NCBI GenBank assembly: GCA_963840455.1
Contig: CAWIYV010000009.1
Span: forward strand, 192,001-256,000
DNA length: 64,000 bases
Direction: 5' to 3'
Source: Nitrospirota bacterium
GTDB taxonomy: Bacteria; Nitrospirota; UBA9217
In this document: positions 8,512 through 41,187 of the stretch, one piece after another
Position numbering within the stretch: position 1 is the stretch's first letter
Layout: every line of letters begins with the position of its first letter
The notes under the pieces: model-generated
What the model was told of the DNA's origin: nothing
Database searches by the model: none
The model's input: the letters and a program-made list of their open reading frames with translations, nothing else
Position numbers and translations under genes: made by a program

Positions 8512-8586
8512 TCAAAGGGCGAGCGAAATGAATGAATTTACTGCCTCGAGGCCGAAGCTCCTGCGGCTTTCTGCAGAGAGCTTCAA
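8512..8586 (+). mobile_element. IS200/IS605-like element, degenerate copy 4
   Basis: GAGGCCGAAGCTCCTGCGGCTTTCTGCAGAGAGCTTCAA right end; left hairpin missing. Confidence 0.6.
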
Positions 8587-8687
8587 CAGCCGGAAAAGAA
8601 AAGCGTTCTTGTTCAAAACCTCTGATGGAATGGAAGATGAAATGATGCCCCGGTGCATTTCCTATCTTATGCGGTGCAAAGGAGGAC

Positions 8688-10109: not shown

Positions 10110-10213
10110 ACCTTATGCCACAGAGCATGTAGGGAGCGAAGGGGGGAACCCTGTCACGACGTTTCCCTCGGAGCATTCCGTGAGCTCTGTGGTATTTTAT
10201 TACTGGACACTTC

Positions 10214-12132: not shown

Positions 12133-12238
12133 GGGAGAAGACACGGGGACAGGAACAACCACTTGGAAGAACGGAAGAAGCCTGATCAGGAACCTTCCGA
12201 AGTCGATCGGTTCCTTCCCTGTCTGAGGGCCTAAATCC

Positions 12239-22384: not shown

Positions 22385-23272
22385 CTATGAATCGCGTAAT
22401 TGCAATGATTGCATGGTCCTTTCTATCCCTGTACTGTCCAGCCCCTCCCCGATGACAACCAGCCGGCTGTTCACCACCTCCTTATCAAAGCGGACCGCAT
22501 CCACCTTGCCGTAAGTGCTGTCGAACCGGTATGGCCCTTCCAGAGTATTGATCAGCGCCTTTGCCCGGGCAACCGATCCGAAGCGTCCTCGTGCCAGTTC
22601 ATCAAAGAATGCCGTGAAGGCGGAGAGCGCCTTTCTGCTGCTGACCGGGAGCGATATCGTCTCGAAGTGGAAGTGACATGCGCTGGGTTGGATATGTCGG
22701 TGAAGGGGCGCTGCGGGCAGGGGAATGTTGATCACTGCTTTTACCGTCCGGAACAGCATGGCCCGCGGATTGATGGCCGCGATCAGGCGTTCAGCGGCGG
22801 CGATCGCTGTCTCGTCCGCGAGGTCGGCCTTGTTCACCATGATGAGGTCGGAGTTTACGATCTGGTCTTCGAAGAAGCTCCCGTACATCCCCGACTCGTA
22901 AAGCTCCGTGAACTCCATGGCGTCGACGATGCCGATGACCGACGCGGAGCCGGTGCCCGCGCTCTCGAGCGCTTCGAGCACACCGGACGGCGATGCCACG
23001 CCGGAGGGTTCGATGAGCAGGTGCTCGGGCGAGAACTGTTTCACGATCCTCTGGACCGTGGTGATGAGGTCGAATTTGAGCGTACAGCAGACGCAGCCGC
23101 TCGGCAGCTCCACTGATTCGATCCCTCCTGCGGAAAAGATCTCGCCGTCGATGCCGGCCTGGCCGAAGTCATTCACCAGCACCACGGTCTTTCCGGACCC
23201 GTCCTTTACGAAGTTCCTGATGAACGTCGTCTTTCCCGCGCCCAGCAATCCGCACACAACGGTTGTTCTCAT
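22385..23272 (-). CDS. COG0523/CobW-family metallochaperone GTPase
   Basis: GLLGAGKTT, VNDFG, GCVCC, IEPSG, NKAD. Confidence 0.9.
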   Translation of the reverse strand: MRTTVVCGLLGAGKTTFIRNFVKDGSGKTVVLVNDFGQAGIDGEIFSAGGIESVELPSGCVCCTLKFDLITTVQRIVKQFSPEHLLIEPSGVASPSGVLEALESAGTGSASVIGIVDAMEFTELYESGMYGSFFEDQIVNSDLIMVNKADLADETAIAAAERLIAAINPRAMLFRTVKAVINIPLPAAPLHRHIQPSACHFHFETISLPVSSRKALSAFTAFFDELARGRFGSVARAKALINTLEGPYRFDSTYGKVDAVRFDKEVVNSRLVVIGEGLDSTGIERTMQSLQLRDS

Positions 23273-23319
23273 AAGACCGGTCCTTTTTTCTAAGAAGGAT
23301 CCAGAGCAGAACACCTGAA

Positions 23320-23474
23320 TCCAGGAGCGAGCGCATTCCCCGTAGCTTGTTGCGGGGTCTTGACCCCCGCGTTTACGAGTGGAACCGCGAGTGCGGGGGG
23401 TAGCGAGCGATTAGAACAAATAGGACTACCTTGAGGCTCCAAGATTCCCTGCAGCTTGCTGCAGGGAGCTTCAA
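23320..23474 (+). mobile_element. IS200/IS605-like element, copy 6, with ~42-bp internal insert
   Basis: TGAA|TCCAGG...CTTCAA; extra CCCCCGC..GCGGGGG hairpin at 23359-23400. Confidence 0.8.
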
Positions 23475-23867
23475 CCACGAGGGCGCGAAGAGCTCCAGGA
23501 AAAGCCATAGATTGTGGTTTAGCCCGCTGTTGAGAAATCATGTTCAAGCATGGCTGCATCATTCCCAAAATAATGAATCCCTCCCCAGCCCTCCCCTTAA
23601 TTTAAGGGGAGAAAAAAGGTGGGGTTATGGTTGGGGAAGCCAGGGTCTTCAAGATATACTGGATCCCCATTTTCACTGGGATGACGAGTTAAAAACGATG
23701 TCTTTTCCACTGACCCATTATATTCAAAGGTCCTTTGACTTCCATCGCGTCCCTTGAGGACTTCGCCGTGAAAGGTCATCTTGTCTGATATATGCAATGG
23801 TAATGCCATGGTCCGGAACAGCAGGAGGGGAGACCAGCGCCGCTCGTTACGGCTGTTCCTGAATGAA

Positions 23868-23913
23868 TCCAGGAGCGAGCGCATTCCTCGCAGCTTGCTG
23901 CAGGGAGCTTCAA
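23868..23913 (+). mobile_element. IS200/IS605-like element, short copy 7
   Basis: TGAA|TCCAGGAGCGAGCGCATT-single hairpin-TTCAA. Confidence 0.75.
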
Positions 23914-23961
23914 TAAGACCGCCCTAGGTATAAACAAGAGTAAACCGGTCCGGTGTTCGCC

Positions 23962-24000
23962 TGGGGCATAATTCCCCACGCCGTGGGGCAATTTTCAACG
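23962..24000. promoter_or_regulatory. Putative tandem enhancer (UAS) for a sigma54 activator
   Basis: Palindrome TGGGG-N7-CCCCA followed by a second TGGGGCAATTTT site, ~110-145 bp upstream of the -24/-12 motif. Confidence 0.5.
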
Positions 24001-24105
24001 GCTCAAATTCTACATAGAAGGTAATCTCCTTGCCATGCAATGCTCTCCGGCCCAAAAGGTGCCCTGTCTCGCAGGGTTCTGCATTCGTTCAGGCTACCCC
24101 GCATC

Positions 24106-24121
24106 TGGCATTACAGTTGCA
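24106..24121 (+). promoter_or_regulatory. Sigma54 -24/-12 promoter
   Basis: TGGCATTACAGTTGCA, exact GG-N10-GC spacing, at the head of the methyltransferase cluster. Confidence 0.75.
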
Positions 24122-24135
24122 CAATAATGTCCGTC

Positions 24136-24465
24136 ATGAAGAATATCATCCTCTGTTCCTCCAATCCGCTGCTGATCAAGAACGTCTATTGTGTTCTTCG
24201 CGATGAGGGATACACCGTTGATACTGTCGAGCATCCCGCCCTTGCCGTTAAGAAGGTCCTCTGGGGAGCCTACGATTTCGTCATCGTGGACTCGGAGCCT
24301 TTCGGCATGTCCGCCGGTGAAGCGGCGCAGATCATCAAGTCCGTCGCGCCTGGCATGCCCATCATGTTCCTGGGCGGCGAAGGGGAGCTGGACTATACCG
24401 CCGGCACCGGCGCACCGCTTGACCTCGAAGTGTTCACGAAAATGATCCATAGCATGGCGGTCTGA
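24136..24465 (+). CDS. Atypical stand-alone receiver-domain protein
   Basis: LRDEGYTV..YDFVIVD..PIMFL receiver pattern; lacks the N-terminal acidic pair. Confidence 0.65.
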   Translation: MKNIILCSSNPLLIKNVYCVLRDEGYTVDTVEHPALAVKKVLWGAYDFVIVDSEPFGMSAGEAAQIIKSVAPGMPIMFLGGEGELDYTAGTGAPLDLEVFTKMIHSMAV

Positions 24466-24499
24466 TGATGCGAATCCAATGATGGCGAAGGGAGATACT

Positions 24500-25528
24500 A
24501 TGACACCGAAAGAAGTGATCCTGAAGGCGTACGAAGGGGGAAAGCCTGACCGGCTGCCGGTGACCCTCTTCGGCGCGGGCATGTGGAGCATCAAGCGGCA
24601 TGGAACATCGTTCGAGGCCCTGTCACGGGACGCTGACAAGATGGCGGACATGCTCGTGGCCATGAGCGAAACGCTCAAGTGCGACATCGTCTATCCCGGA
24701 TCGGGCTACAACAACTTCCACGCTTCTGCCCTGGGCGGGAAGATCAAGTTCCGGGAGATGGGCGCACCTGACCTGGAGAACCATTTCGTTTCGTCCGAGG
24801 AGGACCTGGCGAAGCTCAAGCTCTCGGACCTAGACAAGGACGAGGTCATCAGCACCGTGATCAAGGCCTTGCGCAAGACCAAGGCGAAGATCGGCAGCAA
24901 CTATGTCGTGACCATGACGGCCTGGGGACCCTTTACCCTCGGCGCGCGGCTCGTGGGCGAAGAGGCCATGATGAAGGCCACGTTCAAGAAGCCGGCCTTC
25001 GTCGAAAAGGTCGTGGATTTCGCCACCGATATCCTGATCCACCTCTACGAGCCCATCGTGGCGGACAAGACCCTCGAGGTCATCAGCCTCGCGGACCCCA
25101 CGGCCTCGGGCGACCTTATCTCCAAGAAGCAGTTCGAGAAGTTCGCCGTTCCGTACCTCAAGAAGTTTACGGACTGGGCGAAGTCGAAGGGCGTCCACAC
25201 ACTGGTCCACATCTGCGGCAACACCACGGACCGGCTGGACCTGTTCCCGATGACCGGCGCCAGCTGCATCAGTCTGGACCATAAGACGGACATCGCCAAG
25301 GCCAAGGAAGCGCTCCACGGCAAGATGTGCTTCGGCGGGAACGTGGACCCCGTGAAGGTCATGCTGAACGGCACGGTCCAGGACGTGGAGAACGCTTGCA
25401 AGGACATCATCAAAGCCGCCGGCACCGACGGCGGGTTCGTACTTATGCCGGGGTGCGACATCCCCCCGACCGTTCCGTACGAGAACATCCAGAAGTTGAT
25501 CCAGGTGGCGCATGAGTGGAAATACTAG
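24500..25528 (+). CDS. MtaA/CmuA-type (UroD fold) Zn methyltransferase 1
   Basis: GPFTLG, ADPTASGDLIS, Zn ligands HICG and PGCDI, GNVDP. Confidence 0.88.
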   Translation: MTPKEVILKAYEGGKPDRLPVTLFGAGMWSIKRHGTSFEALSRDADKMADMLVAMSETLKCDIVYPGSGYNNFHASALGGKIKFREMGAPDLENHFVSSEEDLAKLKLSDLDKDEVISTVIKALRKTKAKIGSNYVVTMTAWGPFTLGARLVGEEAMMKATFKKPAFVEKVVDFATDILIHLYEPIVADKTLEVISLADPTASGDLISKKQFEKFAVPYLKKFTDWAKSKGVHTLVHICGNTTDRLDLFPMTGASCISLDHKTDIAKAKEALHGKMCFGGNVDPVKVMLNGTVQDVENACKDIIKAAGTDGGFVLMPGCDIPPTVPYENIQKLIQVAHEWKY

Positions 25529-25738
25529 AAACGTCCAACACCACCGATGAACACTGATGTAAGAGAGCAGAAACAGTATCGCTGCAGATCATATCAACGC
25601 TGTCCTATCTTAAGAAAAGGAGGTATCGCGGTTCCAACGCAGTAGTGAGTGGAGGCAACTCCAGTAGGTATTGTGGACGAGTTCAAGAAGCTGTTTTCCC
25701 GGGCGCAGACAGCGGCCGGGCAGAAGGAGGAAAGCAAA

Positions 25739-26182
25739 ATGGCTGACAAGAAGATGACAGTGGAAGAAGTGAACGAGTATATGAAGAAGCAGTGCGGCTT
25801 CGTGCCGAGGATGTTCCAGATCATCAACACCGTTTCGCCGGAGCCGGGCAGGACCTTCGCCGATTTCTATGCCAGCATCTTCGGCGATGGGGCACTTTCC
25901 CGTAAGGTGAAAGAGCTCATGTTCATGTCGGGTGGCGTGGCCTACTGCTCGCCGCGGTGCATCATCCACGTGATCCCGGCGATCAACGCCGGCGCCACGG
26001 ACGGTGAGATCTTCGAAGCGGCATCGGTCGGCATGATCCTTGGGGGCTTCGTTCCCGGCGGACCGGGCATCCCCTATGCCTTCGAGTACGCGCTCAAGTG
26101 CATCGATATCGCCGGCAAGTACCGTAAGGGCGAGAAGTGGGAGTATCTCCCGCAGCCCAAGTTCGACCACGGCGTGTTCTAA
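25739..26182 (+). CDS. Carboxymuconolactone decarboxylase/AhpD-family protein
   Basis: GALSRKVKEL, CSPRCIIH, AGATDGEIFEA; AAGGAGG RBS. Confidence 0.85.
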   Translation: MADKKMTVEEVNEYMKKQCGFVPRMFQIINTVSPEPGRTFADFYASIFGDGALSRKVKELMFMSGGVAYCSPRCIIHVIPAINAGATDGEIFEAASVGMILGGFVPGGPGIPYAFEYALKCIDIAGKYRKGEKWEYLPQPKFDHGVF

Positions 26183-26351
26183 CCTGTCGTCAGGGAGGCG
26201 TTCTCTTGCCTCCCCCGGACTCATACAACCAATTCATACAAGAATAAACGGTTTTTACCACAGAGGACAGAGAGTTCGCAGAGGAGAACCGCAATGGTTT
26301 TTCTTGATGACCTCGGTGGCTAAATCGATTTATCGTTCATAAGGAGTCTCC

Positions 26352-27299
26352 ATGTTCAGGTTCTCGAAAGAGCAAAAGGTCTTCAACCTCAACGGCATCA
26401 AGGTCGGCGGCCAAGCAGGCGAGAACCCACCGGTGCTGATCGCGTCCATGTTCCACAACAAGGACCGGATCGTCGTTGACCGCAAGGGGAACTTCGACCG
26501 CCTGAAGGCCGTGGAGCTCATCCGGAAGCAGGAGGAGCTGTCCGTCTCCACGGGCATCCCGTCGCTCGTTGCCATGGTCGCGAACTCGGCCGAGGAGGCG
26601 AAGATCTACATCGACTTCTACCGCGAGACGACGACCATGCCCTTCGGCATCGACATGTGGGTAGCCGAGAAACGGGCCGAAGCCACGGAGTACGTGGCCA
26701 AGCTGGGCCTGCAGGACAAATTTCTGTACAACAGCATCACACCCTGGGACAAGGACATCAAGGGACAGGTGCAAAAGCTCAAGGACCTGGGGATCAAGCA
26801 TGTGGTGGTCCAGGCCTTCGATGACCAGGACCAGACGCCGGGTGGGCGTCTGAAATCCCTCGAGAAGCTGCTTGACCAGGGCGCGGGAGACTTCGACACC
26901 GTCATCGTCGATACGTCGGTGATGAACCTGCCCGCCACGTCGTTCTCCCTCATTGCCAACCGGCTGATCAAGGAAAAGCTCGGCCTCCCCTGCGGCGGTG
27001 CTTACTCGAACGGCACGCACATGTGGAAGGACGCGAAGACCCTCTGGAGCCTCGACGGGTTCCGGGCCATGGACGCCGTGGTGCAGGGCATGTCGTCGGT
27101 GCTCTGGAGCGACTTCAACTTTTACGGCCCCATCGTCACGGCGCCGCGCATCTTCCCGGCCGTGGCGGCGGCCCACATCCTTCTCACGACGCTGCTCTAC
27201 GACGAGACGAAGAAGATCGCCGACAATCCGAACCTTCCGATCAAGAAGTACTTTGGCGACTTCCTGGGCAAACTGACCGCAGGAGCAGCGAGGAAATAG
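26352..27299 (+). CDS. MtrH-family methylcorrinoid:pterin (H4folate/H4MPT) methyltransferase
   Basis: MFRFSKEQKVF..KVGGQAGENPPVLIASMF N-terminus typical of MtrH, LYNSI, LPCGG, FYGPI. Confidence 0.88.
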   Translation: MFRFSKEQKVFNLNGIKVGGQAGENPPVLIASMFHNKDRIVVDRKGNFDRLKAVELIRKQEELSVSTGIPSLVAMVANSAEEAKIYIDFYRETTTMPFGIDMWVAEKRAEATEYVAKLGLQDKFLYNSITPWDKDIKGQVQKLKDLGIKHVVVQAFDDQDQTPGGRLKSLEKLLDQGAGDFDTVIVDTSVMNLPATSFSLIANRLIKEKLGLPCGGAYSNGTHMWKDAKTLWSLDGFRAMDAVVQGMSSVLWSDFNFYGPIVTAPRIFPAVAAAHILLTTLLYDETKKIADNPNLPIKKYFGDFLGKLTAGAARK

Positions 27300-27410
27300 A
27301 ACTGCAAGAGCGTAAAGGGCAAGAGGTAAAAGGTAAAGGGCAAGGCAGGGAATTCAGAACGCTCCTCGCTCCTCACCCCTTGTTTCTTACGGATCCTTCA
27401 AGGAGGTTCA

Positions 27411-28431
27411 ATGAACGCACGAGAACGGGTACTGAAGATGTTCGCCGGCGAGGAGGTCGACCGGCCGCCCTGCTTCAGCGGCATGGGCAACGTGACGACC
27501 GAAGGTCTTAAAAAGCTGAACCAGAACTTCGCGGCAACGCATCTTGACGCGAAGATGATGGCTGCTGCCGCGGCGTCGACCTACAAGCTCTTTGGCTTCG
27601 AATGCGGCGTAGCGCCCTTCGACCTCTGCATCGAGGCCGAGGCCATGGGGTGCGAGATCAATGTATATGCCCATTCCGAGGACCTGCTGTATCCCACGAT
27701 CAAGAAGAAGCTGATCCACAACGAGGCGGAGCTTGACATCACCATCCCCGGCGACCTTACTCAAGCGCGGGAGGGTGCCGCTCATGGTGGACGTCATCAA
27801 GCAGCTCAAGAAGGACATCGGCAGCGAGGCGCCCGTGGGCTCCTATGTGCTCGGGCCGTTCACGCTGGCAGGCCAGATCATGGAGTTGAACGACCTCCTG
27901 AAGCTGTCCTTCAAGAAGCCGGACAAGATCGGGAAGCTGCTGGACCAGATGGCGGGCGTGATCATCCAGGTGGCGCAGGAGTACGAGAAGGCAGGTGTGG
28001 ACTTCATTACCGTGCGGGAGATGGGGGCGACGTCGGATGTGCTCTCCCCCCGGGTGTTCAAGAGCCTGATCCTGCCGTACCTCAAGAGGATCTTCGAGAA
28101 GCTGACCGTGCCGAGCGTACTCCATATCTGCGGCAAGACGAATGACATCGTCCCGTTCATGGCCGAGAGCGGCGCGAAGGCCATCAGTGTGGACCAAAAG
28201 AATGACGTCGCCGAGACGCGCAAGAAGCTCGGCCCCAGGGCGCTGGTCTTCGGGAACTACGACCCCTACAACGTGCTGGTCGCGGGGACGCCGGACCTGG
28301 TGCGCCAGACCATCAAGAAATGCATGGACGACGGCGTAAGCGCGGTCTGGCCCGGCTGCGACATCTGGCCGACGGTGCCGGCCGAGAACTTCAAGACCAT
28401 GATGGAGGTCGTAAAAAATTACCGGAGGTGA
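27411..28431 (+). pseudogene. MtaA/CmuA-type Zn methyltransferase 2, split by a +1 frameshift near 27759 (real or sequencing error)
   Basis: First frame gives MNARER..PFDLCIEAEAMG..IPGDL; second frame continues LKRGRVP..GPFTLAG..LHICG..PGCDI. Confidence 0.82.
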
Positions 28432-28436
28432 TCCCT

Positions 28437-29125
<689 letters not shown>

Positions 29126-29129
<4 letters not shown>

Positions 29130-29818
29130 AGACCTCGCTCAAGCGGGAGCTGCTGGACCACGGAGCAGCGGTCGTGGGGATCGCCGGCCTTCGCGGGTAT
29201 CTGAGCGGTGAGATCGCCCACCTGGACCGGGCGGTGTCCATCGGCGTGGACCGGAAACTGAACGAAGATACGCTTGCGCTCCTTACGAGGCTCCAGAAGC
29301 GGACGGTTCGTTTCCTGAAGGCCCGGGGTCACCGGACGCTGGCGATCCCGCCGGACTCGGACCGTCGGAAGGGGACGTTCGTCTCCAAGCTCTATTCGCT
29401 CTTCAACCACAAGATGGCGGCGACTTCAGCGGGGCTGGGCTGGATCGGGAAGAACGGCCTGCTCATCAGCCCCGAACATGGTCCGCGGCTCTCCCTGGCC
29501 ACGGTGCTGACCGACGCACCGATGAGGCCGGACGTGCCCATCGAACACTGCTTGTGCGGTGAGTGCGTGCTCTGCATCGAGCATTGTCCGTCGCAGGCGA
29601 TCACTGGCGCGAAATGGTCGCGCTCCTCACCGTTCACGGAACTGGTGAGTCTGGGTGCGTGCCGGAGCCACAAGACAAGCAAACGCCAGACCGCGGGCAA
29701 GCCCAACTGCGGGCTGTGCATCAACATCTGTCCCTACGGCCGGCGGTTGGGGACAGAAGCGATCACCAGGCAGAATAAGCAGGATATCACCGCCAAGGCG
29801 CAAAGGACGCAAAGGTAG
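29126..29818 (+). CDS. QueG/reductive-dehalogenase-like Fe-S protein
   Basis: HKMAATSAGLGWIGKNGLLISPEHGPR, CGECVLCIEHCP, CGLCINICP. Confidence 0.8.
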
Positions 29819-29896
29819 AAAAGGAGAACGGGTTCGCCGTCCTTCACGCTCTTCGCGCCTTCGCGGTAAAATGATCTCGACCTGGGGAGGAAGTAA

Positions 29897-31876
29897 ATGT
29901 CCAAGAAGCATAAAGTGATCTTCCAGCCGTCGGGCAGGCGCGGCGAGATCGAGGACGGGAAGACCATCCTCGAGGCGGCCCAGGCCATGGGCGTTGACAT
30001 CGAAGGGCTCTGCGGCAACAAGAAGGTCTGCGGCAAGTGCAAGGTCAGGATCGAGGAAGGGTACTTCGAGAAGGACAATATCGAATCTGGGATGGCCCAC
30101 CTCTCGCCGTTGACCGAAGGGGAGAAGAAGCACATCAAGCCCGAGGACGGCCCCGGGATGAGATTGTCCTGCACCGCCGAGGTCCACGGCGACATCAAGG
30201 TCTTCGTGCCCGAACGGTCGCGCGCAGGCAAGCAGGTGGTGCGCAAGGCAGCCAAGGAGCTCACCATCAAGCTGGACCCGGCGGTGAAGAAGTACAACAT
30301 CGACCTCGTGCCCCCCACGCTCCACGACATGACCACCGGCGACTGGGAGCGGGTGCTCAAGTTCCTCGAGGACGACTACGGCCTGAAGGGGCTGACCTTC
30401 GATTACCTTGTCCTGAAGGACCTCCAGGATACCCTGCGCAAGGGAGAATGGAAAGCCACGGTCACGGTCTGGATGGACAAGGAGATCATCAAGGTCGAGC
30501 CCGGCTTCGTTGAGGTGAGCTACGGGCTTGCCGTGGACATCGGCACCACGACCTGCGTGGGGTACCTTACGGACCTGAGCACGGGCAAGGTGGTGAACAC
30601 CGAGTCCATGATGAACCCCCAGGTGCCCTATGGCGAGGATGTGATGTCGCGCATCACCTACGCCATGAGCAATCCCGGCATGGGCCTCGAGACCATGCAG
30701 AAGGCCATCATCCAGGGCCTGAACGAGATCATCGAGCGCGTGGTGACCGATATCAGGAAGGACGGCCCGAATCCGGGGTACGTCATCGACGATCTCACGA
30801 TCGTGTTCAACACGGCCATGCACCACATCTTCCTCGGCATGAACCCCGAGTATATCGGCCGCTCACCCTTCATCCCCGCAGTCCAGAGCTCGCTCGACAT
30901 CAAGGCGCGCGACCTGGGACTTCGCATCAATCCCTCGGCGTACATCCACGTGCTGCCCATCGAGGCGGGCTTCGTGGGCGCCGACAATGTGGGCGTGCTG
31001 ATCGCCGAGGAACCCTACAACCAGGACGAGAAGGTGCTGATCATCGACATCGGCACGAACGGCGAACTGCTCATGGGCAACCGAAACAAAGTCTGCTCCA
31101 CGTCCTGCGCCACCGGGCCGGCCTTTGAGGGCGCCCAGATCAAGTTCGGCATGCGCGCGGCCCCCGGCGCCATCGAGACCGTGGAGATCGATCCTGCGAC
31201 GAAAGAACCGCGCTACAAGGTCATCGGCAAGGCGGACTGGCATACGCACATCGAGAAGGTGGACGCCAAGGGCCTCTGCGGCTCGGCCATCATCCAGGTT
31301 GTGGCGGAGATGTTCAAGGCGGGCATCATCGACAAGTCAGGCAGGTTCGTGCTGGACCTGGGCACTCCGCGCGTGCGCAAGGACGTTGAGGGCAAGCCCG
31401 AATACGTGCTTGCCTGGGCATCGGAGACGTCCATCGGCCAGGACATCACCGTCACCCAGGGCGATGTGCGGGCACTGCAGCTAGCCAAGGGAGCGCTCTA
31501 TACGGGGGCGAAGCTCATGATGAAACGGCTCGGCATCACGACGCTTGACCGGGTGATCCTGGCAGGCGCGTTCGGCAGCCATATCGACCGCGAGGCGTCC
31601 ATGACGCTCGGCCTGTTCCCGGACTGCGCCCTCGACAAGGTCTACGCCGTGGGCAATGCGGCAGGCGACGGCTCGCGCATGGCGCTCCTGAACCGGGACA
31701 AGCGGCGCGAAGCGAACGAACGGGCGCGCTGGGTCGAGTTCGTCGAGATCGCCACGGATCCGGCCTTCGAGAAGGAGTTCATGCAGGCCATGCACATCCC
31801 GCATATGAAGGACAAGTTCCCGAACGTGAAGGAGCTCCTCGCGAAGAAGGGAAGCAGCGTGGAGATCAAGGGATGA
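29897..31876 (+). CDS. ASKHA-domain ATP-dependent corrinoid activator (RACo/DUF4445, RamA-like function)
   Basis: N-terminal [2Fe-2S] (CGNKKVCGKC), AVDIGTTT, NPQVPYGEDVMSRI, DIGTNGE, ATGPAFEG, LAGAFG. Confidence 0.92.
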   Translation: MSKKHKVIFQPSGRRGEIEDGKTILEAAQAMGVDIEGLCGNKKVCGKCKVRIEEGYFEKDNIESGMAHLSPLTEGEKKHIKPEDGPGMRLSCTAEVHGDIKVFVPERSRAGKQVVRKAAKELTIKLDPAVKKYNIDLVPPTLHDMTTGDWERVLKFLEDDYGLKGLTFDYLVLKDLQDTLRKGEWKATVTVWMDKEIIKVEPGFVEVSYGLAVDIGTTTCVGYLTDLSTGKVVNTESMMNPQVPYGEDVMSRITYAMSNPGMGLETMQKAIIQGLNEIIERVVTDIRKDGPNPGYVIDDLTIVFNTAMHHIFLGMNPEYIGRSPFIPAVQSSLDIKARDLGLRINPSAYIHVLPIEAGFVGADNVGVLIAEEPYNQDEKVLIIDIGTNGELLMGNRNKVCSTSCATGPAFEGAQIKFGMRAAPGAIETVEIDPATKEPRYKVIGKADWHTHIEKVDAKGLCGSAIIQVVAEMFKAGIIDKSGRFVLDLGTPRVRKDVEGKPEYVLAWASETSIGQDITVTQGDVRALQLAKGALYTGAKLMMKRLGITTLDRVILAGAFGSHIDREASMTLGLFPDCALDKVYAVGNAAGDGSRMALLNRDKRREANERARWVEFVEIATDPAFEKEFMQAMHIPHMKDKFPNVKELLAKKGSSVEIKG

Positions 31877-31936
31877 ATCAATTGCGGATTTCGGATCGCG
31901 GAATGAAGACAAAGACAGCAGGACAAATGCTATTTT

Positions 31937-32087
31937 ACCGCAGAGAGCGCTGAGCACGCAGAGGATAGATAAATATTAACTAACGTTGAAAACGACCCAT
32001 TGGCTGTCTTTCCGAGCAAGCGAAGCAGTCACGTATTAAATTGATCTACAATAGGTTATTCTCCGCGGTCTCTGCGTCCTCTGCGGT
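31937..32087. repeat. 9-bp-period inverted repeat (ACCGCAGAG type)
   Basis: ACCGCAGAGAGCGCTGAGCACGCAGAG...CTCCGCGGTCTCTGCGTCCTCTGCGGT around an AT-rich spacer. Confidence 0.75.
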
Positions 32088-32243
32088 GAAAAAGCTTCTC
32101 TTCTCAATTTATGGTTTCAGGATTATCACCGCGGACTCCCTCCTGGTGATAGTTGAGGCGGCAGGGGCGGGAAGGCGTTCCCCCGGACGTTGTTCCTTCC
32201 CGCCCTTCTTCCTTAGAAGGCCCGGTCCGGGATCGGATGGCAT

Positions 32244-32561
32244 ATGACCAAAGTGATCGTCAACTCAGGGGCATGCGGCTTCACGGTCACCATCACGGCC
32301 GAGAAGGCGAAGGACAAGAAGGTTCTCATCATCCTGGACACGGCCTGCGAGATGGTGAAAAAGCTGCAGACAGATATCGCTTCTGTCGACCGGATGGTGA
32401 CGCTCACGGGCTTTGCCGACAATCCGGTCTACCGCTCCGCTGCAAAGCATCTCAAGCACGTCGCCTGTCCGGTCCCGTCCGCCATCCTGAAGGCCATCGA
32501 GACCGAATCAGGCATGAACGTGCCGAAGGACGTGCGGATCGAGTTCGTCCGGGAGAAATGA
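32244..32561 (+). CDS. Small Cys-containing conserved protein, DUF6951-like
   Basis: GACGF, C, HVACPVPSAILKAIE, PKDVRIEF pattern; genome-typical codon usage. Confidence 0.7.
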   Translation: MTKVIVNSGACGFTVTITAEKAKDKKVLIILDTACEMVKKLQTDIASVDRMVTLTGFADNPVYRSAAKHLKHVACPVPSAILKAIETESGMNVPKDVRIEFVREK

Positions 32562-32629
32562 CGGCGCTCCTCGCATCTTCCGCGTGCCCGCTGTGTTATA
32601 CTGAGAGCACTTTTCGGAAACGGACGGCC

Positions 32630-33316
32630 ATGGGAACGATCATCATCATTGCGGTGTACGGCGTGTACGCTGCGTTCTGGATACGGTTCTTCCTGCATAC
32701 GCTGGCGTGGTGGCGCGGCCGGGCCGAGGACATGGTCGCGGTCCTTCCGCAGAGGCCGCCGCTGCTCAAGGCCTGGGCGCTTACCCTGCGCGACGTGGTC
32801 CTCTTCTGGCGGCTTCTAAAGGTAAACCCTGCGCTTTGGTTCGGCGAGTATCTGTTTCACTCGACGTTCCTGCTCGTGGCGCTGCGCCATCTACGGTACA
32901 TCCTGGACCCTGTGCCGTTGTGGGTCTGGGACCTGCAGCTACCAGGCCTCATCGCCGGCTATGTGCTTCCCTTTTCGCTGGTGTACATCCTCGCCGTCCG
33001 CTTCTTCAGCGAGCGGGAAAAATATTCCTCGCCGGCAAACGTCCTGCTCCTTGCGCTGATCCTGATGATCAGCGGCATCGGGGTGGTGATGCACGCTTTC
33101 TTCACGCCGAATCTTGTGGACGTGAAGTACTTCGTGCTCGGGCTTTTGTCCCTTGCACCGGCGCCGCTTCCGGCAGGCGTGCTGTTCCCGCTGCATCTGG
33201 TCCTGGTGCTGGTGCTGGTCGCGCTCGTGCCCAGCCACATCGTTACCGCTCCGCTGGTGATGCTGGAGGCCAGGAGGCGGGAACTGGGCCTTCCACAGGT
33301 GATGCATGAAAAATGA
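32630..33316 (+). CDS. NarI/HdrE/DsrM-like membrane cytochrome b subunit
   Basis: About 5 TM segments; YLFH..LRHLRY and PLHL..PSHI His pairs; overlaps the hdrD start. Confidence 0.7.
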   Translation: MGTIIIIAVYGVYAAFWIRFFLHTLAWWRGRAEDMVAVLPQRPPLLKAWALTLRDVVLFWRLLKVNPALWFGEYLFHSTFLLVALRHLRYILDPVPLWVWDLQLPGLIAGYVLPFSLVYILAVRFFSEREKYSSPANVLLLALILMISGIGVVMHAFFTPNLVDVKYFVLGLLSLAPAPLPAGVLFPLHLVLVLVLVALVPSHIVTAPLVMLEARRRELGLPQVMHEK

Positions 33317-34508
33317 CCGGTCCTTCACCGAAGAGCTTTCTTCGCGCCAGATGTTGGAGATCGACGCCTGCACGCAGTGCGGCGAGTGCCTGAAGCATTG
33401 CCCGGTGCAGGATGTGACCGGCAACCCGTCGGTCTCTCCGCCTGAGAAGATCCGCATGTTCCGCGAGTTCATCCGAAAAACCGACGGGCTCAAAGCAAAG
33501 CTCTTCGGCTCGAGCGACGTCGATCGCAAGCTTCTTGATGACTTCACGAAGGCCGTCTACGAATGCACGACCTGCGGCGCCTGCGGCCAGAACTGCCCGG
33601 TCGGCATCTTCACGCAGCGGCTCTGGCCCACGCTCAGGAAAGAGATGGTAAAGCGCGGGCTCGGTCCTATCGGCATACAGGCGAACCTGCCGAAAGTAGT
33701 TAAGAGCAGCGGAAATCCCTACGATAAGCCCGCCGCTGACCGCTATCGTCCTTGGTTTCCGGAGCAGGTGAAGGTTGTTGAGCAGGCGGACATCGCCTAT
33801 TACGCTGGATGCACCGGCGCCTACGAAGCTCACCCCATGGTGCGGGGCGATGCGCTCGTGCTCGGTGCCGTCGGCGAACCTTTCACTATGCTGCCGCCGG
33901 AAGAGGAGGTCTGCTGCGGGTTCCCGCTTTTCATCACGGGCCAGCACGACCTGCTCAAGGACCTTGTCGACCGGCTCGTCGAGGGATATCGCAGCCGGGG
34001 TGTGAAGACGCTTGTCTGCTCCTGTCCGTGCTGCGTGAACATCATGTCGCGGGACTGGCCCGCGCTCTATGGCCGCGAGCTGCCGTTCACGATCCGGCAC
34101 ATCACGCAGTACGTATCGCACGCGCTGCGGGAGGGGCGGCTCAAGATCACGAAGGAACTGAAAGAGTCCGTGATCTACCACGACCCATGCTACCTGAGCA
34201 GGGGGGTGGGCGTGATCGAGGAGCCCCGCGAGGTGCTCCGGAGCATCCCCGGCGTCACGGTGCTCGAGTTCGAGCGGCATGGCCTTAACTCGCGGTGCTG
34301 CGGGTCGGGCGGGGCGGCCCGGAAGGTGTACCATGAGAACGCCATAAAGATGGGAAGGCAGACGATCGACGAGGCCGTGGCAAAGAAGGCGGACCGGCTT
34401 ATCCTTTCCTGTCCCGCCTGCTACGCAAAGGTGAACGAGGCCATGCAGGGACACGACAGGCAGATCAGGATCACTGATATCATGGAGCTGGTGAGCGGAT
34501 TGATCTAA
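33306..34508 (+). CDS. hdrD: Heterodisulfide reductase catalytic subunit D-like
   Basis: Two [4Fe-4S] motifs (CTQCGECLKHCP, CTTCGACGQNCP) and two CCG domains; GLKAKLFG and DWPALYGRELPF recall Methanosarcina HdrD. Confidence 0.82.
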   Translation: MKNDRSFTEELSSRQMLEIDACTQCGECLKHCPVQDVTGNPSVSPPEKIRMFREFIRKTDGLKAKLFGSSDVDRKLLDDFTKAVYECTTCGACGQNCPVGIFTQRLWPTLRKEMVKRGLGPIGIQANLPKVVKSSGNPYDKPAADRYRPWFPEQVKVVEQADIAYYAGCTGAYEAHPMVRGDALVLGAVGEPFTMLPPEEEVCCGFPLFITGQHDLLKDLVDRLVEGYRSRGVKTLVCSCPCCVNIMSRDWPALYGRELPFTIRHITQYVSHALREGRLKITKELKESVIYHDPCYLSRGVGVIEEPREVLRSIPGVTVLEFERHGLNSRCCGSGGAARKVYHENAIKMGRQTIDEAVAKKADRLILSCPACYAKVNEAMQGHDRQIRITDIMELVSGLI

Positions 34509-34556
34509 AGCGATCGCTGGTCAGCTTGCAGGCTTGCCTGACTGGGGACTTTACCT

Positions 34557-35813
34557 ATGAGCCATTTTTCCATACGCTGCAGAAACTGCGGGAAGATCCT
34601 CGATCACTCGTACTGCGCCTTTTGCGAACATTGCGCCGATTCGCTGCTGGTCACGGACTACAATGCGCGGTTCAGCAAGCAGGGCGGCGAGGGCGTCTGG
34701 CGCTTCAACTGGCTGCCGGTGCACTCCCCTATCGTGGCGCAGCCGGGCCCGGTCGTGTACCGCTCCGTTGGGCTGGCCGTCCACCTCGGGCTCGAGAACC
34801 TGTACATCGCGTTCAACGGGTACTGGCCGGAAAAGGGCGCCGGGCTCCAGACCTGCACATTCAAGGAGTTCGAGGCCGCGGTGGTGCTCCAGAACGCCAG
34901 GGAGAACGGGATCGAGGGGCTCATCGCGGCTTCCGCGGGGAACACGGCCCGCGCCTTCGCGCACTTGTCAGCGCTGTCCGGATATCCCGTGGTCATCATT
35001 GTGCCGCGCATGTGCCTGTCCGAGATGTGGTACCTTAAGCACTCCACGGGTGTTCCCACGGTAGCAGTGGCCGACGGGGACTACTCGGATTCGATCGACG
35101 TGGCTCGCCGGATCGCGCGGGTGACCGGTTTTCCCTTCGAGGGCGGCGTCAAGAACATCGCGAAGCGGGACGGGTTGGGCATTGTGCTGCTCGAGGCAGT
35201 GTCGGTCATGAAGCGGCTGCCGGACCGCTATTTCCAGGCCGTGGGCAGCGGCGCGGGGGCCATCGGCGTGTGGGAGATGGCCGAGCGGTTCCTCGCTGAC
35301 GGACGCTTCGGGCACCGGCTCCCGGTCCTGCACCTGGGCCAGAACCTGCCATTCGCTCCGATGGTGATGGCCTGGCAGAGAAAGGAAAGGGCGCTGGCGA
35401 AAGAGGACCTGGACCAGGCCCTGATCCCGATGATCACGACGCGGGTGCTGTCGACACGCTATCCCGCTTACAGCATACAAGGGGGCGTGTTCGACGCGCT
35501 CATGGCGACGCAGGGGAGCATGCACGGCGTCCGGAACAACGAGGTCTACGCGGCCATGGACCTGTTCCAGCGCACAGAGGGTTCGGACATCGTACCTGCC
35601 GCGGGAGTTGCGGTGGCGGCGCTGCAGCAGGCGGTGCGGAACGGTATAGTCCGGCCCGACGAACTGGTCCTCCTGAACATCACCGGGGGCGGCGAGAAGA
35701 GGCTGGCCCCGGACAATAAGGTGCCGTGCCTCGAACCGCGGCTTGTTTCCAAGAACATCACCGAAAAAGAGATCGAGGAGCTGCTGTGCAACGTTCTGAA
35801 GAAGAGGTCATAA
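34557..35813 (+). CDS. Cysteate synthase (threonine-synthase-like PLP enzyme)
   Basis: N-terminal CxxC, FNGYWPEKGA..TCTFKEFEA, ASAGNTARAF, EGGVKNIAKRDGLG, YFQAVGSG, LNITGGG. Confidence 0.88.
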   Translation: MSHFSIRCRNCGKILDHSYCAFCEHCADSLLVTDYNARFSKQGGEGVWRFNWLPVHSPIVAQPGPVVYRSVGLAVHLGLENLYIAFNGYWPEKGAGLQTCTFKEFEAAVVLQNARENGIEGLIAASAGNTARAFAHLSALSGYPVVIIVPRMCLSEMWYLKHSTGVPTVAVADGDYSDSIDVARRIARVTGFPFEGGVKNIAKRDGLGIVLLEAVSVMKRLPDRYFQAVGSGAGAIGVWEMAERFLADGRFGHRLPVLHLGQNLPFAPMVMAWQRKERALAKEDLDQALIPMITTRVLSTRYPAYSIQGGVFDALMATQGSMHGVRNNEVYAAMDLFQRTEGSDIVPAAGVAVAALQQAVRNGIVRPDELVLLNITGGGEKRLAPDNKVPCLEPRLVSKNITEKEIEELLCNVLKKRS

Positions 35814-36931
35814 CAACGCTCACGAGGAACGGCGTGGACTTCACCGCGTCGCTCCCCTGTGAGAAGATCAAGACCCTGTTGGAGATGGTCGCCCGCTCGT
35901 TTCAGCATCTTCCGCTGACTCGGGAAGAGGAGGGCGTGGGGATCTGCGCAGGCGCAGCGCTGGCAGGCAGGCGTCCGGCCATGTTCGTCCAGAGCTCAGG
36001 CATCGGGAACATGATCAACGCGCTGCTGTCGCTTACCCAGTTCTATGAGCTGCCGCTTGCATTGTTTGTGAGCCGTCGGGGTGTATACCAGGAGAAGATC
36101 GAGGCGCAGTTCCCCATGGGACGGAAGCTCCCGGCCATGCTTGCCGGGGCAGGGATCACCTATACCGAGATCAATGCGCACGATGAGCTCTCTGCGCTGG
36201 AACGGGAATTGCCCCATCTCTACGAAAAGAACAAGATCCATGCGTTCCTGCTGAGCCCGAAGGTGTGGGAAGGGTCCGATTGTGGATCGCGGATCGCGGC
36301 TTGCGGCTTGAAAGATGAAAAAACCCTTGAGATATCAGGCGAGAGGCGCGATATACGCGAAATTCAGGGAGCACACCTCACGCGCTATGACATCATCAAT
36401 ATCCTTTCACCGTACCTTGACGGCAAGGTCGTGGTGTGCAACCTCGGTTGGCCGTCCAAGGAACTTTTTGCGATCAAGCACCAGCCGTCGAATTTCTACA
36501 TGCTCGGCAGCATGGGCATGGTGACGCCCATCGGGCTCGGCATCGCGCTCTCTTCGCGCAGCGAGGTCGTCGTCATCGACGGCGACGGGAGCCTCTTGAT
36601 GAACCCCGGCACGCTCGCAACCGCCGCTGCTGCCGCTCCGGAGAACCTCACGATCGTCGCAATCGACAACGGCGCCTACGGGTCGACCGGGAACCAGCCG
36701 ACGCTGGCAGCCTCCTGCGTGGACCTCGAACAGGTGGCGCGGGGATTCGGATTCAGGAACACCGTGAAAGTGGCGGGAGAGCAGGAGATCGCCGAGGCGA
36801 TGAAGGGCCGGGGAAAGGGACCCAAGTTCATTCATGTCCTGGCGGTTCCGGGGAACAAGGACGTGCCGAACATCCCCGTGCATCATCTCGAGATCAAGAA
36901 GCAGGTGCAGGAGCTTTTGAGATCAGAATAA
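35786..36931 (+). CDS. comDE: Fused sulfopyruvate decarboxylase ComD-ComE
   Basis: SLPCEKIK, TREEEGVGICAGA, QSSGIGNMINAL; NFYMLGSMG and ThDP motif DGDGSLLMN..DNGAYGSTGNQ; GAGGAG before GTG 35786. Confidence 0.9.
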   Translation: MQRSEEEVITTLTRNGVDFTASLPCEKIKTLLEMVARSFQHLPLTREEEGVGICAGAALAGRRPAMFVQSSGIGNMINALLSLTQFYELPLALFVSRRGVYQEKIEAQFPMGRKLPAMLAGAGITYTEINAHDELSALERELPHLYEKNKIHAFLLSPKVWEGSDCGSRIAACGLKDEKTLEISGERRDIREIQGAHLTRYDIINILSPYLDGKVVVCNLGWPSKELFAIKHQPSNFYMLGSMGMVTPIGLGIALSSRSEVVVIDGDGSLLMNPGTLATAAAAAPENLTIVAIDNGAYGSTGNQPTLAASCVDLEQVARGFGFRNTVKVAGEQEIAEAMKGRGKGPKFIHVLAVPGNKDVPNIPVHHLEIKKQVQELLRSE

Positions 36932-37040
36932 TGTCCGAATAAGGGGAGCGCAGCATAGCGCCCCCCTTGATGCGCTGGTTGGGATCAGTGTGTCGGGTTT
37001 CGCTTTACTCTATTCGACTTACAAAACGTATCGAAAGCAT

Positions 37041-37209
37041 CACAGAATACCTCCGGGTCTCGACACGGATATGAATGTCATTCTTGCCAGAGGGTAATAG
37101 AGGGAGCGGAAAGCCACCCGATACCGAGGAGGTCGTCGGCGAAGCCGAGACCTGCACAGCGTCATTATGAAGTGCTGAGATGCCCCGCCCCTTGAGGCGG
37201 GTAGCTCAC
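37041..37209 (+). mobile_element. Probable IS605/IS1341 right-end remnant (tnpB tail and omega-RNA-like region)
   Basis: Frame LDTDMNVILARG* resembles the TnpB tail; ends TGAAG..GATGCCCCGCCCCTTGAGGCGGGTAGCTCAC. Confidence 0.5.
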
Positions 37210-37236
37210 TGTAATAAACCCATCTTTGGCGATGTT

Positions 37237-40999: not shown

Positions 41000-41187
41000 A
41001 CAATCCATCCTTGGACGATGAGCTAATAAGTAGTGTATCAATAAACTGTGCTCAGATTGTAGCCGATTTTTTGCCTCGGTGCAACCATCTCTGCCGGGTT
41101 CGCCGAGCCATCCGGGCATAGATCGGGGCGGGTCTTCCTCCTTCAGACAGTTGTTTTTGTTTGACAGGCTTGCAACACTTCATTAAT

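Follow-up and report, generated by a model that had tools for sequence, protein, structure and literature searches.

What would a bacterium do with genes for the synthesis of coenzyme M (CoM), and why would it keep them beside a corrinoid methyl-transfer system, when no McrA is found in its genome? The question is raised by a cluster of 13 co-oriented genes (positions 24106-36931, + strand) in a 64,000-nucleotide (nt) stretch of a Nitrospirota genome, to which we refer as the window (G000:C9:192001-256000, where G000 is the source genome, assembly GCA_963840455.1, and C9 its contig CAWIYV010000009.1). The accessible portions of the CoM literature describe CoM as the methyl or alkyl carrier of archaea and as an epoxide-carboxylation cofactor of a few aerobic bacteria. 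A preliminary description of the window had proposed that the cluster is a CoM-linked methyl-transfer system built from methanogen-type parts. Our analysis separates a methyl-transfer module, running from a receiver gene to a RACo gene, from a thiol/sulfonate module, running from a DUF6951 gene to comDE, with a 367-nt gap between them. We observed that both modules are kept in the same genome even when they are no longer linked, and the second module corresponds, by its sequence matches, to the committed first part of the archaeal type-2 CoM route without the last enzyme of that route. We see about an even chance that the host makes a sulfonated thiol, probably CoM, and uses it in folate-linked methyl transfer. 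In many anaerobic Nitrospirota, such a thiol probably has a so far undescribed use.

Conservation and co-retention of the two modules

We compared the window with the 80 best loci found with its cysteate synthase (CS; 65 to 88% identical) by tblastn of the window proteins, and synteny was counted only at loci long enough to show the gene in question. Gene content and order were retained across about 80 other genomes, and the submitters' names of the 80 loci were nearly all Nitrospirae/Nitrospirota, Thermodesulfovibrionales/-ia, and Candidatus Sulfobium metagenome-assembled genomes (MAGs), with one Betaproteobacteria and one Rokuibacteriota as odd labels. ComDE followed CS in 73/73 loci, the HdrD-like gene lay upstream of CS in 72/73, DUF6951 and HdrD were both present in 62/65, and RACo lay upstream of CS in 56/58. 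The full run from MtrH to RACo was found together with HdrD in 48/50 loci, the exceptions being L042 and L049. No conserved co-oriented gene followed ComDE among the 80 loci; the genes that recurred at this place were convergent and encoded either a protein of about 200 amino acids (aa; 29/80 loci) or an SsuA-like protein (12/80).

The two exceptions are genomes in which the cluster is broken up. In G408 (L049), the genes for MTa, CMD, MtrH, MTb, the corrinoid protein, the small Fe-S protein, and RACo lie on one contig, and HdrE, HdrD, CS, and ComDE lie on another, behind unrelated radical-SAM genes. In G409 (L042), the methyl-transfer module with DUF6951, an HdrD orthologue (78% identity), and CS-ComDE lie on three separate contigs. 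In both genomes the cluster is broken at the gap that corresponds to positions 31877-32243. Because the modules were co-retained when not adjacent, these genomes provide better evidence of functional dependence than does synteny inside one phylum.

Co-occurrence was scored in a class set of 64 genomes, which belong to a single family in the collection, with MtaA-type genes called at a best E of <1e-40, well apart from HemE at ~1e-30. CS was present in 37 genomes and MtaA-type genes in 40; both were found in 36, CS only in 1, the methyltransferases only in 4, and neither in 23. Contigs end within the cluster in three of the odd genomes (G044, G006, and G069), the whole cluster is present with many frameshifts in another (G057), and in the last (G050) the matches sit at contig ends. 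The expectation in the preliminary description that the genes would be conserved as a unit is thus borne out by the 48 of 50 loci, by the 36 co-occurrences, and by the broken-up genomes that keep the parts. Across the phylum, CS scored over its cut-off in 68/401 genomes, 36/163 genera, and 13 families, and it was not found in the largest Nitrospirota families searched (0/87, 0/41, and 0/20).

Of the 8000 CS candidates scored in the protein collection, 7729 lay at E <=1e-20; the matches listed for CS were close relatives (70 to 98% identical), and those listed for DUF6951 were likewise close. A midpoint-rooted tree of 94 of 150 representatives (those of 380 to 480 aa; 56 were left out) and 11 rows of our own placed the Nitrospirota CS proteins in one clade (SH-aLRT 100), apart from 92 other representatives. 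Atlas clusters of CS-like proteins include archaea, Bacteroidota, and other bacteria. The label "methanogen-type parts" is too narrow in that CS-like clusters occur in Bacteroidota and other bacteria and the Nitrospirota clade stands apart.

The thiol/sulfonate module

The evidence for sulfonate synthesis comes from the last two genes (Table 1). By its equivalog score, the first of them is a cysteate synthase, with its catalysis predicted; in a search of the whole source genome with TIGR03844 it scored 459.5 bits, and the other threonine-synthase-like gene only 58 bits. ComDE fits phosphonopyruvate decarboxylase less well (215.3 versus a cut-off of 312.5), and its homology starts near 35790, abutting the end of the CS gene.

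Upstream of these genes lie a membrane subunit and an Fe-S protein. The HdrE-like protein has about five hydrophobic segments, with His77, His87, His189, and His203 kept in 85 to 90% of 41 orthologues, and its orthologue in L049 matches Pfam Nitrate_red_gam. All 18 motif cysteines of the HdrD-like protein are invariant among 28 sequences. Its best NCBIfam match was TfrB, the HdrD-like part of thiol:fumarate reductase (181 bits), and it reached 90.8 bits versus a cut-off of 400 for DsrK. The two complete CCG domains agree with the HdrE/HdrD naming used earlier, but the available models cannot separate the pair from DsrM/DsrK-type relatives, and on sequence "HdrED-like" and "DsrMK-like" appear to be equally fair names.

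DUF6951, the first protein of the module, has Cys11, Cys35, His72, and Cys75 invariant in 30 sequences, a spacing that we take to resemble that of IscU. Foldseek searches with its structure model (pLDDT 92.7) returned top-ranked matches that were nearly all ISCU, SufE, CsdE, SufU, and IscU, all of them weak (E >=0.019, TM mostly 0.35-0.58). With moderate confidence, DUF6951 is probably a sulfur-carrier-like or Fe-S-scaffold-like protein. Among 14 control genomes the family was also matched in Methanosarcina acetivorans, and its Atlas clusters are chiefly from Nitrospirota and Chloroflexota. A full-text literature search found no paper naming the family. A predicted complex of DUF6951 with the HdrD-like protein scored 0.00 against a mark of 0.32, which we count neither way.

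The methyl-transfer module

The first module encodes three methyltransferases, one corrinoid protein, and proteins likely to serve them. For both MTa and MTb the nearest solved structure is MtaA (4AY7), and the HICG and PGC motifs of each line up with those of MtaA; we take the H-x-C ... C residues to be the zinc ligands that activate a thiol. MTa and MTb are only 27% identical to each other, and MTb, which aligns to 4AY7 over residues 4-331, matches it better (164 bits) than does MTa (94.6 bits). MTa fell under the subfamily cut-offs (TIGR01463, 200.7 versus 235.4; NF004889, 190 versus 244). Family tests of MTb were made with an intact orthologue (L014; 92 to 93% identical), which passed both: 254.3 versus 235.4 for TIGR01463 and 276.9 versus 244 for NF004889, the "methylcobalamin:coenzyme M methyltransferase" subfamily model.

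The intact orthologue was used because MTb is split by a frameshift in the source assembly. Relative to four relatives, MTb carries one extra base near 27760. The gene is in a single frame in 51/51 relatives holding both parts. Just two contigs from other samples cover the site (X5 and X17; one DNA run, one RNA library), and both are one base shorter at 27760/27761. The frameshift is thus private to the source assembly, as an assembly error or a recent lesion. The earlier assignment of this second MtaA-like gene stands as to family, with the intact orthologue over the cut-offs, but it had overlooked that the reading frame is broken.

The third methyltransferase, the single PF02007 match in the source genome, belongs to the MtrH family and fell under the equivalog cut-offs of mtrH (162 versus 271.4) and MtgA (153.3 versus 550). 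The corrinoid protein scored 204.6 with TIGR02370, slightly below the cut-off of 215.3. All four Pfam domains of RACo were over their cut-offs, and it scored 469 versus 800 for AcsV. Between the last two genes lies that of the 230-aa Fe-S protein, which has eight invariant Cys, is shorter than its solved relatives (370 to 450 aa), and scored below the cut-offs of TIGR00276 (63 versus 200) and TIGR02486 (64 versus 160). Its structure model (pLDDT 83.5) matched QueG (E 9e-10), PceA (1e-8), NpRdhA (~1e-6), and MMACHC (3e-4) in Foldseek. This fold match (E 9e-10 to 1e-5) points to a minimal B12-binding member of the QueG/RdhA superfamily that is neither QueG nor a dehalogenase by score and length.

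The CMD/AhpD-like protein is the most conserved of the cluster (65 to 95% identity). Of the two Cys in its motif, the second never varies, and five orthologues have Met in place of the first. Selenocysteine in this protein was considered and rejected, given this replacement and the lack of an in-frame stop in all orthologue stretches (0/44). The only NCBIfam neighbours of the protein, all weak (E ~5e-6 to 1e-3), were AhpD domains fused or linked to arsenite and other methyltransferases.

Table 1. Features of the cluster and its surroundings (window positions)
Feature	Position	Strand	Basis or remark
CobW/COG0523 G3E GTPase, metallochaperone type	22385..23314	-	Pfam cobW 129 bits, CobW_C
Second sigma-54-type motif	23793..23808	-	faces CobW gene; 300 nt from the first motif
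Sigma-54-type -24/-12 motif, TGGCAT-N5-TTGCA	24106..24121	+	sequence read
Stand-alone receiver domain protein, ~112 aa	24127..24465	+	Pfam Response_reg E 1.7e-5, below gathering score
MTa, MtaA/CmuA-related methyltransferase of URO-D fold	24479..25528	+	Pfam URO-D 217 bits
CMD/AhpD-like protein, C-S-P-R-C...H motif	25649..26182	+	Pfam CMD 27.6 bits
MtrH-family methyl-corrinoid:pterin methyltransferase	26352..27299	+	NF002142 321.7 versus cut-off 287
MTb, MtaA-type methylcobamide:thiol methyltransferase, split by one-base frameshift	27411..28431	+	two frames
Corrinoid (B12-binding) protein	28437..29129	+	Pfam B12-binding, B12-binding_2
Small QueG/RdhA/CblC-superfamily Fe-S protein, two 4Fe-4S motifs, 230 aa	29126..29818	+	partial RDH and QueG matches
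RACo-type ATP-dependent reductive activator, N-terminal 2Fe-2S domain	29897..31876	+	Pfam Fer2, RACo_linker, Raco_middle, RACo_C_ter
AT-rich intergenic gap, 367 nt, with inverted repeat; module boundary	31877..32243		sequence read
DUF6951 small Cys protein, 105 aa	32244..32561	+	PF22263 106 bits
HdrE/DsrM/NarI-type membrane subunit, ~228 aa	32630..33316 (start approximate)	+	DsrM model 57.4 bits versus cut-off 300
HdrD-like Fe-S protein, two 4Fe-4S motifs, two complete CCG domains	33306..34508	+	Pfam CCG (two stretches), Fer4 families
Cysteate synthase (CS)	34557..35813	+	TIGR03844 equivalog 459.8 versus cut-off 324.9
Fused sulfopyruvate decarboxylase ComDE	35726..36931	+	TIGR03846 (beta) 229.3 versus 221.5; TIGR03845 (alpha) 183.2 versus 147.95
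Phospholipase-D/cardiolipin-synthase-type genes (two)	37237-38628; 42825-43952	-; +	just downstream of cluster
Multihaem (paired CXXCH) cytochrome c	40172-41119	-	just downstream of cluster

The source genome

The source genome (4.03 Mb in 14 contigs; completeness 100%, contamination 0.83%) carries dsrAB on the contig of the cluster, 155 kb downstream. It also contains acsB/CdhC and two methylene-tetrahydrofolate reductase genes, one of them about 9 kb from acsB. By its gene content, the organism is predicted to be a sulfite-reducing Nitrospirota with Wood-Ljungdahl genes, and genes of this pathway, for which the preliminary description had suggested a search, are present to receive methyl groups. 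HemE is the sole URO-D protein of the genome besides the methyltransferases of the cluster. The flanking genes are bacterial, as had been stated earlier: a multihaem cytochrome c, phospholipase D-type genes, a Tct transporter, and a histidine kinase with a sigma-54 activator. The G+C content is 0.57-0.64 across the cluster versus 0.51-0.64 in the flanks. A chimera with archaeal DNA, which the preliminary description had named as a risk, was rejected given this even G+C content, dsrAB on the same contig, the low contamination, and relatives' contigs of up to 1.2 Mb that carry the cluster; one of the relatives' loci is on a closed MAG chromosome. Parts of the window were matched in wetland, subsurface, freshwater, sediment, and soil runs from 14 studies.

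Possible CoM synthesis and its missing last enzyme

According to the accessible part of a study of M. acetivorans (PMC12068725), three CoM routes are known, cs and comDE mutants of this methanogen are CoM auxotrophs, MMP16 is its main CoM synthase, the COG1900 enzyme L-ASST is proposed as a possible back-up CoM synthase, and an Ssu-type transporter takes up CoM. A role for DUF39 had been predicted earlier in a 2014 G20 paper, in the part of it available. The Xanthobacter route is the sole bacterial CoM route named in the available parts of the 2022 and 2025 CoM papers, in keeping with the preliminary description, which had set characterised bacterial CoM synthesis apart from the genes of the cluster. 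Our full-text literature search, outside whose scope lay the supplementary gene tables of MAG papers, found no description of this cluster. All of its parts are of known kinds. What is new is the joining of CoM-type biosynthesis and an Hdr-type complex with MtaA-type and MtrH enzymes in Mcr-free bacteria, as are the wide occurrence of the cluster and the absence of the known last enzyme.

Neither of the enzymes that could complete the archaeal route was detected. ComF/MMP16 (TIGR03287) was not found in the source genome, where the best match reached 30.5 bits versus 363.95 and covered the ferredoxin region only. COG1900/PF01837 had no match in this 100% complete genome, and its controls were matched in methanogens. 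The only known last-step enzyme and its proposed back-up are thus both missing, and for this reason we treat CoM itself as the probable rather than the established product. The claim that the organism makes CoM stands for the first steps, for which CS and ComDE score over their equivalog cut-offs, but not for the last one.

Two further sets of genes may bear on the last step. In L042 (locus 3133-12700), CS-ComDE is followed by genes for ThiF, a JAB protease, and a 92-aa ThiS-family protein that has Gly-Gly and then two more residues; upstream lie sulfite-reductase-like, OsmC-like, DsrE-like, and SsuA-like (-) genes. The ThiF of L042 is 81% identical to that of the source genome, so the "Rokuibacteriota" label of this locus may be a binning matter. 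In the source genome, the corresponding set (L115; G000:C7:90546-92901) encodes TusA, ThiF, a JAB protease, ThiS, and a NIL-domain protein and lies between homoserine dehydrogenase and aspartate kinase genes. The arrangement resembles a homocysteine route of thiocarboxylate type, and the genome has no COG1900 match. By analogy, the two contexts of the ThiF/JAB/ThiS genes may parallel the MMP16/L-ASST pair of methanogens.

Proteins of sulfonate-binding (TauA/SsuA) type also occur near the cluster. In G409, a TauA/SsuA-type ABC transporter (L121; G409:C33, locus 9187-12107, -) lies between RACo and DUF6951, with a binding protein that has a leader peptide, a permease, and an ATPase, the last two recognised by eye only. 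Among solved structures, this binding protein is nearest to TauA, which binds taurine (E 8.5e-16), and to SsuA (E 6.6e-11). The window itself encodes an SsuA-family-like protein without leader peptide (3078-4022, -; TIGR01728 101 bits, under the cut-off but spanning the whole model), for which sequence search returned no solved relative. Its orthologues, 52 to 67% identical, adjoin CS-ComDE in the 12 of 80 loci mentioned above, and a role for it as a cytoplasmic sulfonate binder in the system is possible.

Proposed function

We infer from gene content the thiol end product, its use by a methyltransferase, the direction of methyl flow, and an external methyl substrate. In the model that we favour, the first module would be a corrinoid methyl-transfer machine driven by the sigma-54 promoter, with one corrinoid protein served by three methyltransferases. 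RACo, and perhaps the QueG/RdhA-like protein too, would keep the cobalt of the corrinoid protein reduced. The MtrH-type enzyme would exchange methyl groups between the corrinoid protein and tetrahydrofolate (H4F), and MTa and MTb, as zinc-type enzymes, would exchange them with thiols or other nucleophiles. In the second module, CS would convert phosphoserine and sulfite, which this sulfite reducer would make itself, to cysteate; a housekeeping aminotransferase would then yield sulfopyruvate, ComDE would yield sulfoacetaldehyde, and a reductive thiolation would yield the sulfonated thiol, most likely CoM. MTb would move methyl groups between the corrinoid protein and this thiol, MTa would add or remove the methyl group of a second partner, and the methyl group would enter the Wood-Ljungdahl pathway as methyl-H4F.

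The HdrED-like complex, which would be quinol-linked, could with DUF6951 either keep the thiol reduced or supply sulfur and electrons for the thiolation in replacement of ComF; through it, thiol/sulfur chemistry would be tied to the quinone pool. The ThiF/JAB/ThiS system, directly behind ComDE in L042, is an alternative candidate for the last step. We tentatively put forward, as possible but doubtful, a fourth, ComF-independent CoM route that uses the Hdr-type complex and an IscU/SufE-like carrier or a ThiS-type thiocarboxylate, with methyl-CoM as an intermediate in folate/sulfite-linked C1 metabolism. The preliminary description had assigned HdrDE to recycling of the disulfide. This is only one of several possible roles, since Mcr, the only known source of the heterodisulfide, was not found.

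A number of findings weigh against the making of CoM and its use in methyl transfer. In addition to the missing ComF/MMP16 and COG1900 enzymes, McrA (PF02249) had no match in the source genome, with controls matched in both methanogens. This agrees with the earlier view of the cluster as an Mcr-free system, but it leaves methyl-CoM without a known sink and nothing in the scheme that makes a heterodisulfide. MTb is frameshifted in the source assembly. MTa scored below the equivalog models NF040654 (163.8) and NF041608 (173.9), as did the intact MTb orthologue (251.4 versus 400 and 188.7 versus 600, respectively), which places both methyltransferases outside the MtaA/MtbA equivalogs. The MtaA family is broad in its thiol acceptors and has relatives that act on pterins or aryl ethers, so membership does not fix the substrate of MTa or MTb. 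Differences in acceptors within the family are also described in the available part of PMC13618148.

Other points concern the thiol/sulfonate module and its linkage. Kin of the HdrD-like protein also serve lactate, glycerol-3-phosphate, DsrC, and other systems, and the best fold match of DUF6951 had an E of only 0.019. DUF6951 was not found in G408 and accompanies the methyl-transfer module in G409, so it is not tightly bound to the HdrED-like pair. Bacterial cysteate synthases also have ends other than CoM; cysteate-synthase-like clusters occur in Bacteroidota, where they serve sulfonolipid synthesis. Finally, most loci came from one phylum, and the conserved synteny partly reflects common descent.

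Alternative functions

The methyl-transfer module could also work as an ordinary bacterial corrinoid demethylase or dehalogenase that moves external methyl groups to H4F, with both MtaA-family enzymes acting on external substrates and the thiol module in a side role. Its substrates might be of the O-demethylase, methanethiol/dimethyl sulfide, chloromethane, or mec type. The mec cassette, as described in the available part of its report, has the same part list (10.1101/2021.08.30.458270), and MtrH by itself suffices to reach H4F. The thiol could then be a protective low-molecular-weight thiol, a corrinoid-repair reductant, or a partner in CblC-like dealkylation by the QueG/RdhA-like protein. 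The resemblance of this protein to MMACHC would fit the last of these roles; MMACHC dealkylates cobalamins with a thiol. A protective role would be in line with a 2025 report (PMC12713407), in whose accessible part overexpression of comDE protects methanogens from oxidative stress. However, a general protective thiol is unlikely to stay with one catabolic operon in 48/50 loci, and the modules were co-retained after rearrangement. The absence of both from 23 of the 64 class genomes likewise speaks against a housekeeping thiol, and MTb is nearer to MtaA than is MTa. We regard such a demethylase with a side-role thiol as unlikely.

Alternatively, the sulfoacetaldehyde from CS and ComDE could go into a non-thiol product such as taurine, isethionate, sulfoacetate, or the head group of a sulfonolipid. 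Linkage to the methyl-transfer and Hdr-like genes would then reflect common regulation or sulfite use and no common cofactor. No known thiol-forming enzyme (ComF/MMP16 or COG1900) was found in the source genome, some bacterial cysteate synthases have no part in CoM synthesis, Dsr is a source of sulfite in this organism, and TauA- and SsuA-type binding proteins also bind taurine and other sulfonates, all of which would suit such an end product. In contrast, the cluster and its immediate surroundings hold no aminotransferase, reductase, or acyltransferase for such products, and the conserved downstream genes are only convergent, unrelated, or of no known family. A thiol cofactor would call for just such a set of proteins, with a pair of zinc-type thiol methyltransferases, a complex of disulfide-reductase type, and a Cys/His protein, and the CS-ComDE-ThiF-JAB-ThiS order in L042 suggests insertion of sulfur. 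We hold a sulfonate product of this kind to be rather improbable.

Methylation or demethylation of metals, metalloids, or inorganic sulfur (arsenite, selenide, or sulfide to methanethiol), with methyl-corrinoid as the donor, the thiol and the AhpD-like protein as helpers, and the Hdr-like complex restoring thiols, would draw on the weak CMD matches to arsenite-methyltransferase-linked AhpD domains and on the COG0523 metallochaperone under a matching divergent sigma-54 motif, but it is very improbable, as the CMD matches lie far under their cut-offs (25 versus 510 bits), no metalloid transporter or resistance gene was seen within the window, and COG0523 proteins are equally expected for loading of zinc or cobalt sites. 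The remaining probability we leave to explanations of which we have not thought.

Comparison with known systems

The cluster is most readily compared with the methylotrophic CoM system of Methanosarcinales (MtaABC/MtsAB-type methyltransferases, HdrDE, and the type-2 route of CS, an aminotransferase, ComDE, and ComF). It shares with this system CS and a fused ComDE over the equivalog cut-offs, an MtaA-type zinc methyltransferase with a cognate corrinoid protein, and an HdrD-like protein of two CCG domains with a putative membrane b-type subunit. DUF6951 is matched in M. acetivorans as well, and sulfonate transporters are linked to both systems, as far as the available part of the M. acetivorans source describes them. 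In contrast, the host of the cluster is a bacterium in whose genome Mcr, ComF/MMP16, and COG1900 were not found, and the cluster has no substrate-specific methyltransferase of the MtaB/MttB type. Its pterin link is a soluble MtrH-family enzyme beside a folate-type Wood-Ljungdahl pathway, its activator is RACo and not RamA (TIGR04270, 115 versus a cut-off of 500), and its methyltransferases score under the MtaA/MtbA equivalog cut-offs.

Bacterial systems that feed H4F (O-demethylases, MtgABC, and mec) also combine MtaA/CmuA-family and MtrH-family enzymes, a corrinoid protein, and RACo in one operon. To our knowledge, none of them has CS, ComDE, an HdrED-like complex, or DUF6951, and the cluster differs from them in having three methyltransferases for one corrinoid protein. 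For the mec cassette of anaerobic dichloromethane degraders, this comparison was made by part list from the available portion of its report.

Like DsrMK-DsrC of sulfate reducers, the cluster has a putative membrane dihaem-type subunit and a cytoplasmic CCG Fe-S subunit beside a small Cys protein that could carry sulfur. Unlike those proteins, the two subunits score far under the DsrK and DsrM equivalogs (90.8 versus 400 and 57.4 versus 300), DUF6951, whose model is weakly IscU/SufE-like, takes the place of DsrC, and the genome has its own dsrAB locus elsewhere. The Xanthobacter xcb genes would be alike in being a bacterial source of CoM. As described in the accessible portions of the CoM papers, however, the xcb route starts from phosphoenolpyruvate via ComA, without cysteate synthase or ComDE, and serves alkene metabolism (epoxide carboxylation) and not methyl transfer.

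If the product of the cluster is CoM, then a new last step of CoM synthesis would be there to find, methyl-CoM chemistry would extend beyond methane metabolism, and marker surveys that read mtaA, hdrD, comDE, and cysteate synthase as signs of methanogens would over-count. Bacteria that share the habitats of methanogens may then compete with them for methylated substrates and even for CoM. Should the ComF-independent route be true, wetlands, aquifers, and sediments would harbour CoM-dependent methyl transfer by bacteria that live beside methanogens and lack Mcr. If the product is another sulfonate, the cluster would still represent an uncharacterised, widespread C1/sulfur system, and even then it offers the first functional handles on DUF6951 and on the minimal QueG/RdhA-type protein.

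Promoter motifs and candidate regulators

The 13 co-oriented genes, the sigma-54-type motif ahead of them, and the divergent COG0523 gene, all listed in the preliminary description, were found at the places given there. The pattern TGGCA[CT]-N5-TTGC[AT] has only two matches within the 64-kb window, and these are the two motifs of Table 1. Of the five relatives in which 520 nt or more of sequence precede MTa, four share this pattern: three carry it between -371 and -389 (the motif of the window is at -373), and one carries it at -158. By its sequence and position, the motif is unlikely to have arisen by chance. In the region 23300-37400, predicted sigma-70 promoters (3 versus a shuffle mean of 4.0) and terminators (10 versus 11.0) showed no excess.

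The receiver reading frame could begin at 24040; its NCBIfam receiver matches were weak, and a homologous upstream gene is present in eight loci. The CobW gene scored under the NCBIfam CobW equivalog cut-off (114 versus 332) and occupies the same divergent position in L037 and L111. A PAS/GAF histidine kinase (4919-6907, +) and an NtrC-type sigma-54 activator (7107-8447, +) are encoded 17 kb upstream of the motifs, and a GAF/sigma-54-activator-like gene lies near CS-ComDE in L042. The PAS/GAF kinase and the NtrC-type activator are candidate regulators of the cluster.

Two metatranscriptome runs, each of a different study (X17 and X18), gave contigs that matched parts of 24434-31800 at >=90% likeness. 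These RNA-library contigs come from related strains and are no proof of transcription, and their thin or missing cover over 32246-37000 is uninformative.

Additional observations on the window and related genomes

Within the gap between the modules, an inverted repeat surrounds an AT-rich core at 31940-32080. Contigs of other strains skip or replace 92 to 284 nt within the gap, and the inverted-repeat segment may be a small inserted element. Another repeat occupies much of the intergenic region between the CobW gene and the operon, at 23316-23337 and 23864-23885 with a partial copy at ~23440. Its 22-base core has 202 copies in the source genome at <=2 mismatches (89 forward and 113 reverse; a reversed control gave 0), frequently paired ~110 nt apart, and it looks like a REP- or MITE-like element.

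The dsrA match in the source genome (G000:C9:411003-412157; 562.6 bits, over the cut-off) contains one TAA within the matched stretch. In the window, the recurrent convergent gene for a protein of about 200 aa lies at 38711-39304 (-); the protein has no family match and is 30 to 83% identical to the copy in L036 across the loci that have it. One class genome, G053 (C16 and C40), carries two full copies each of CS and of the MTa/MTb pair, as a result of duplication or of a bin that mixes two strains. Further, distant sets of MtaA-type, corrinoid-protein, and RACo genes were observed in G409 (L122; G409:C33:36901-50000; 21 to 56% identical) and in G007, G019, G023, G056, and G062.

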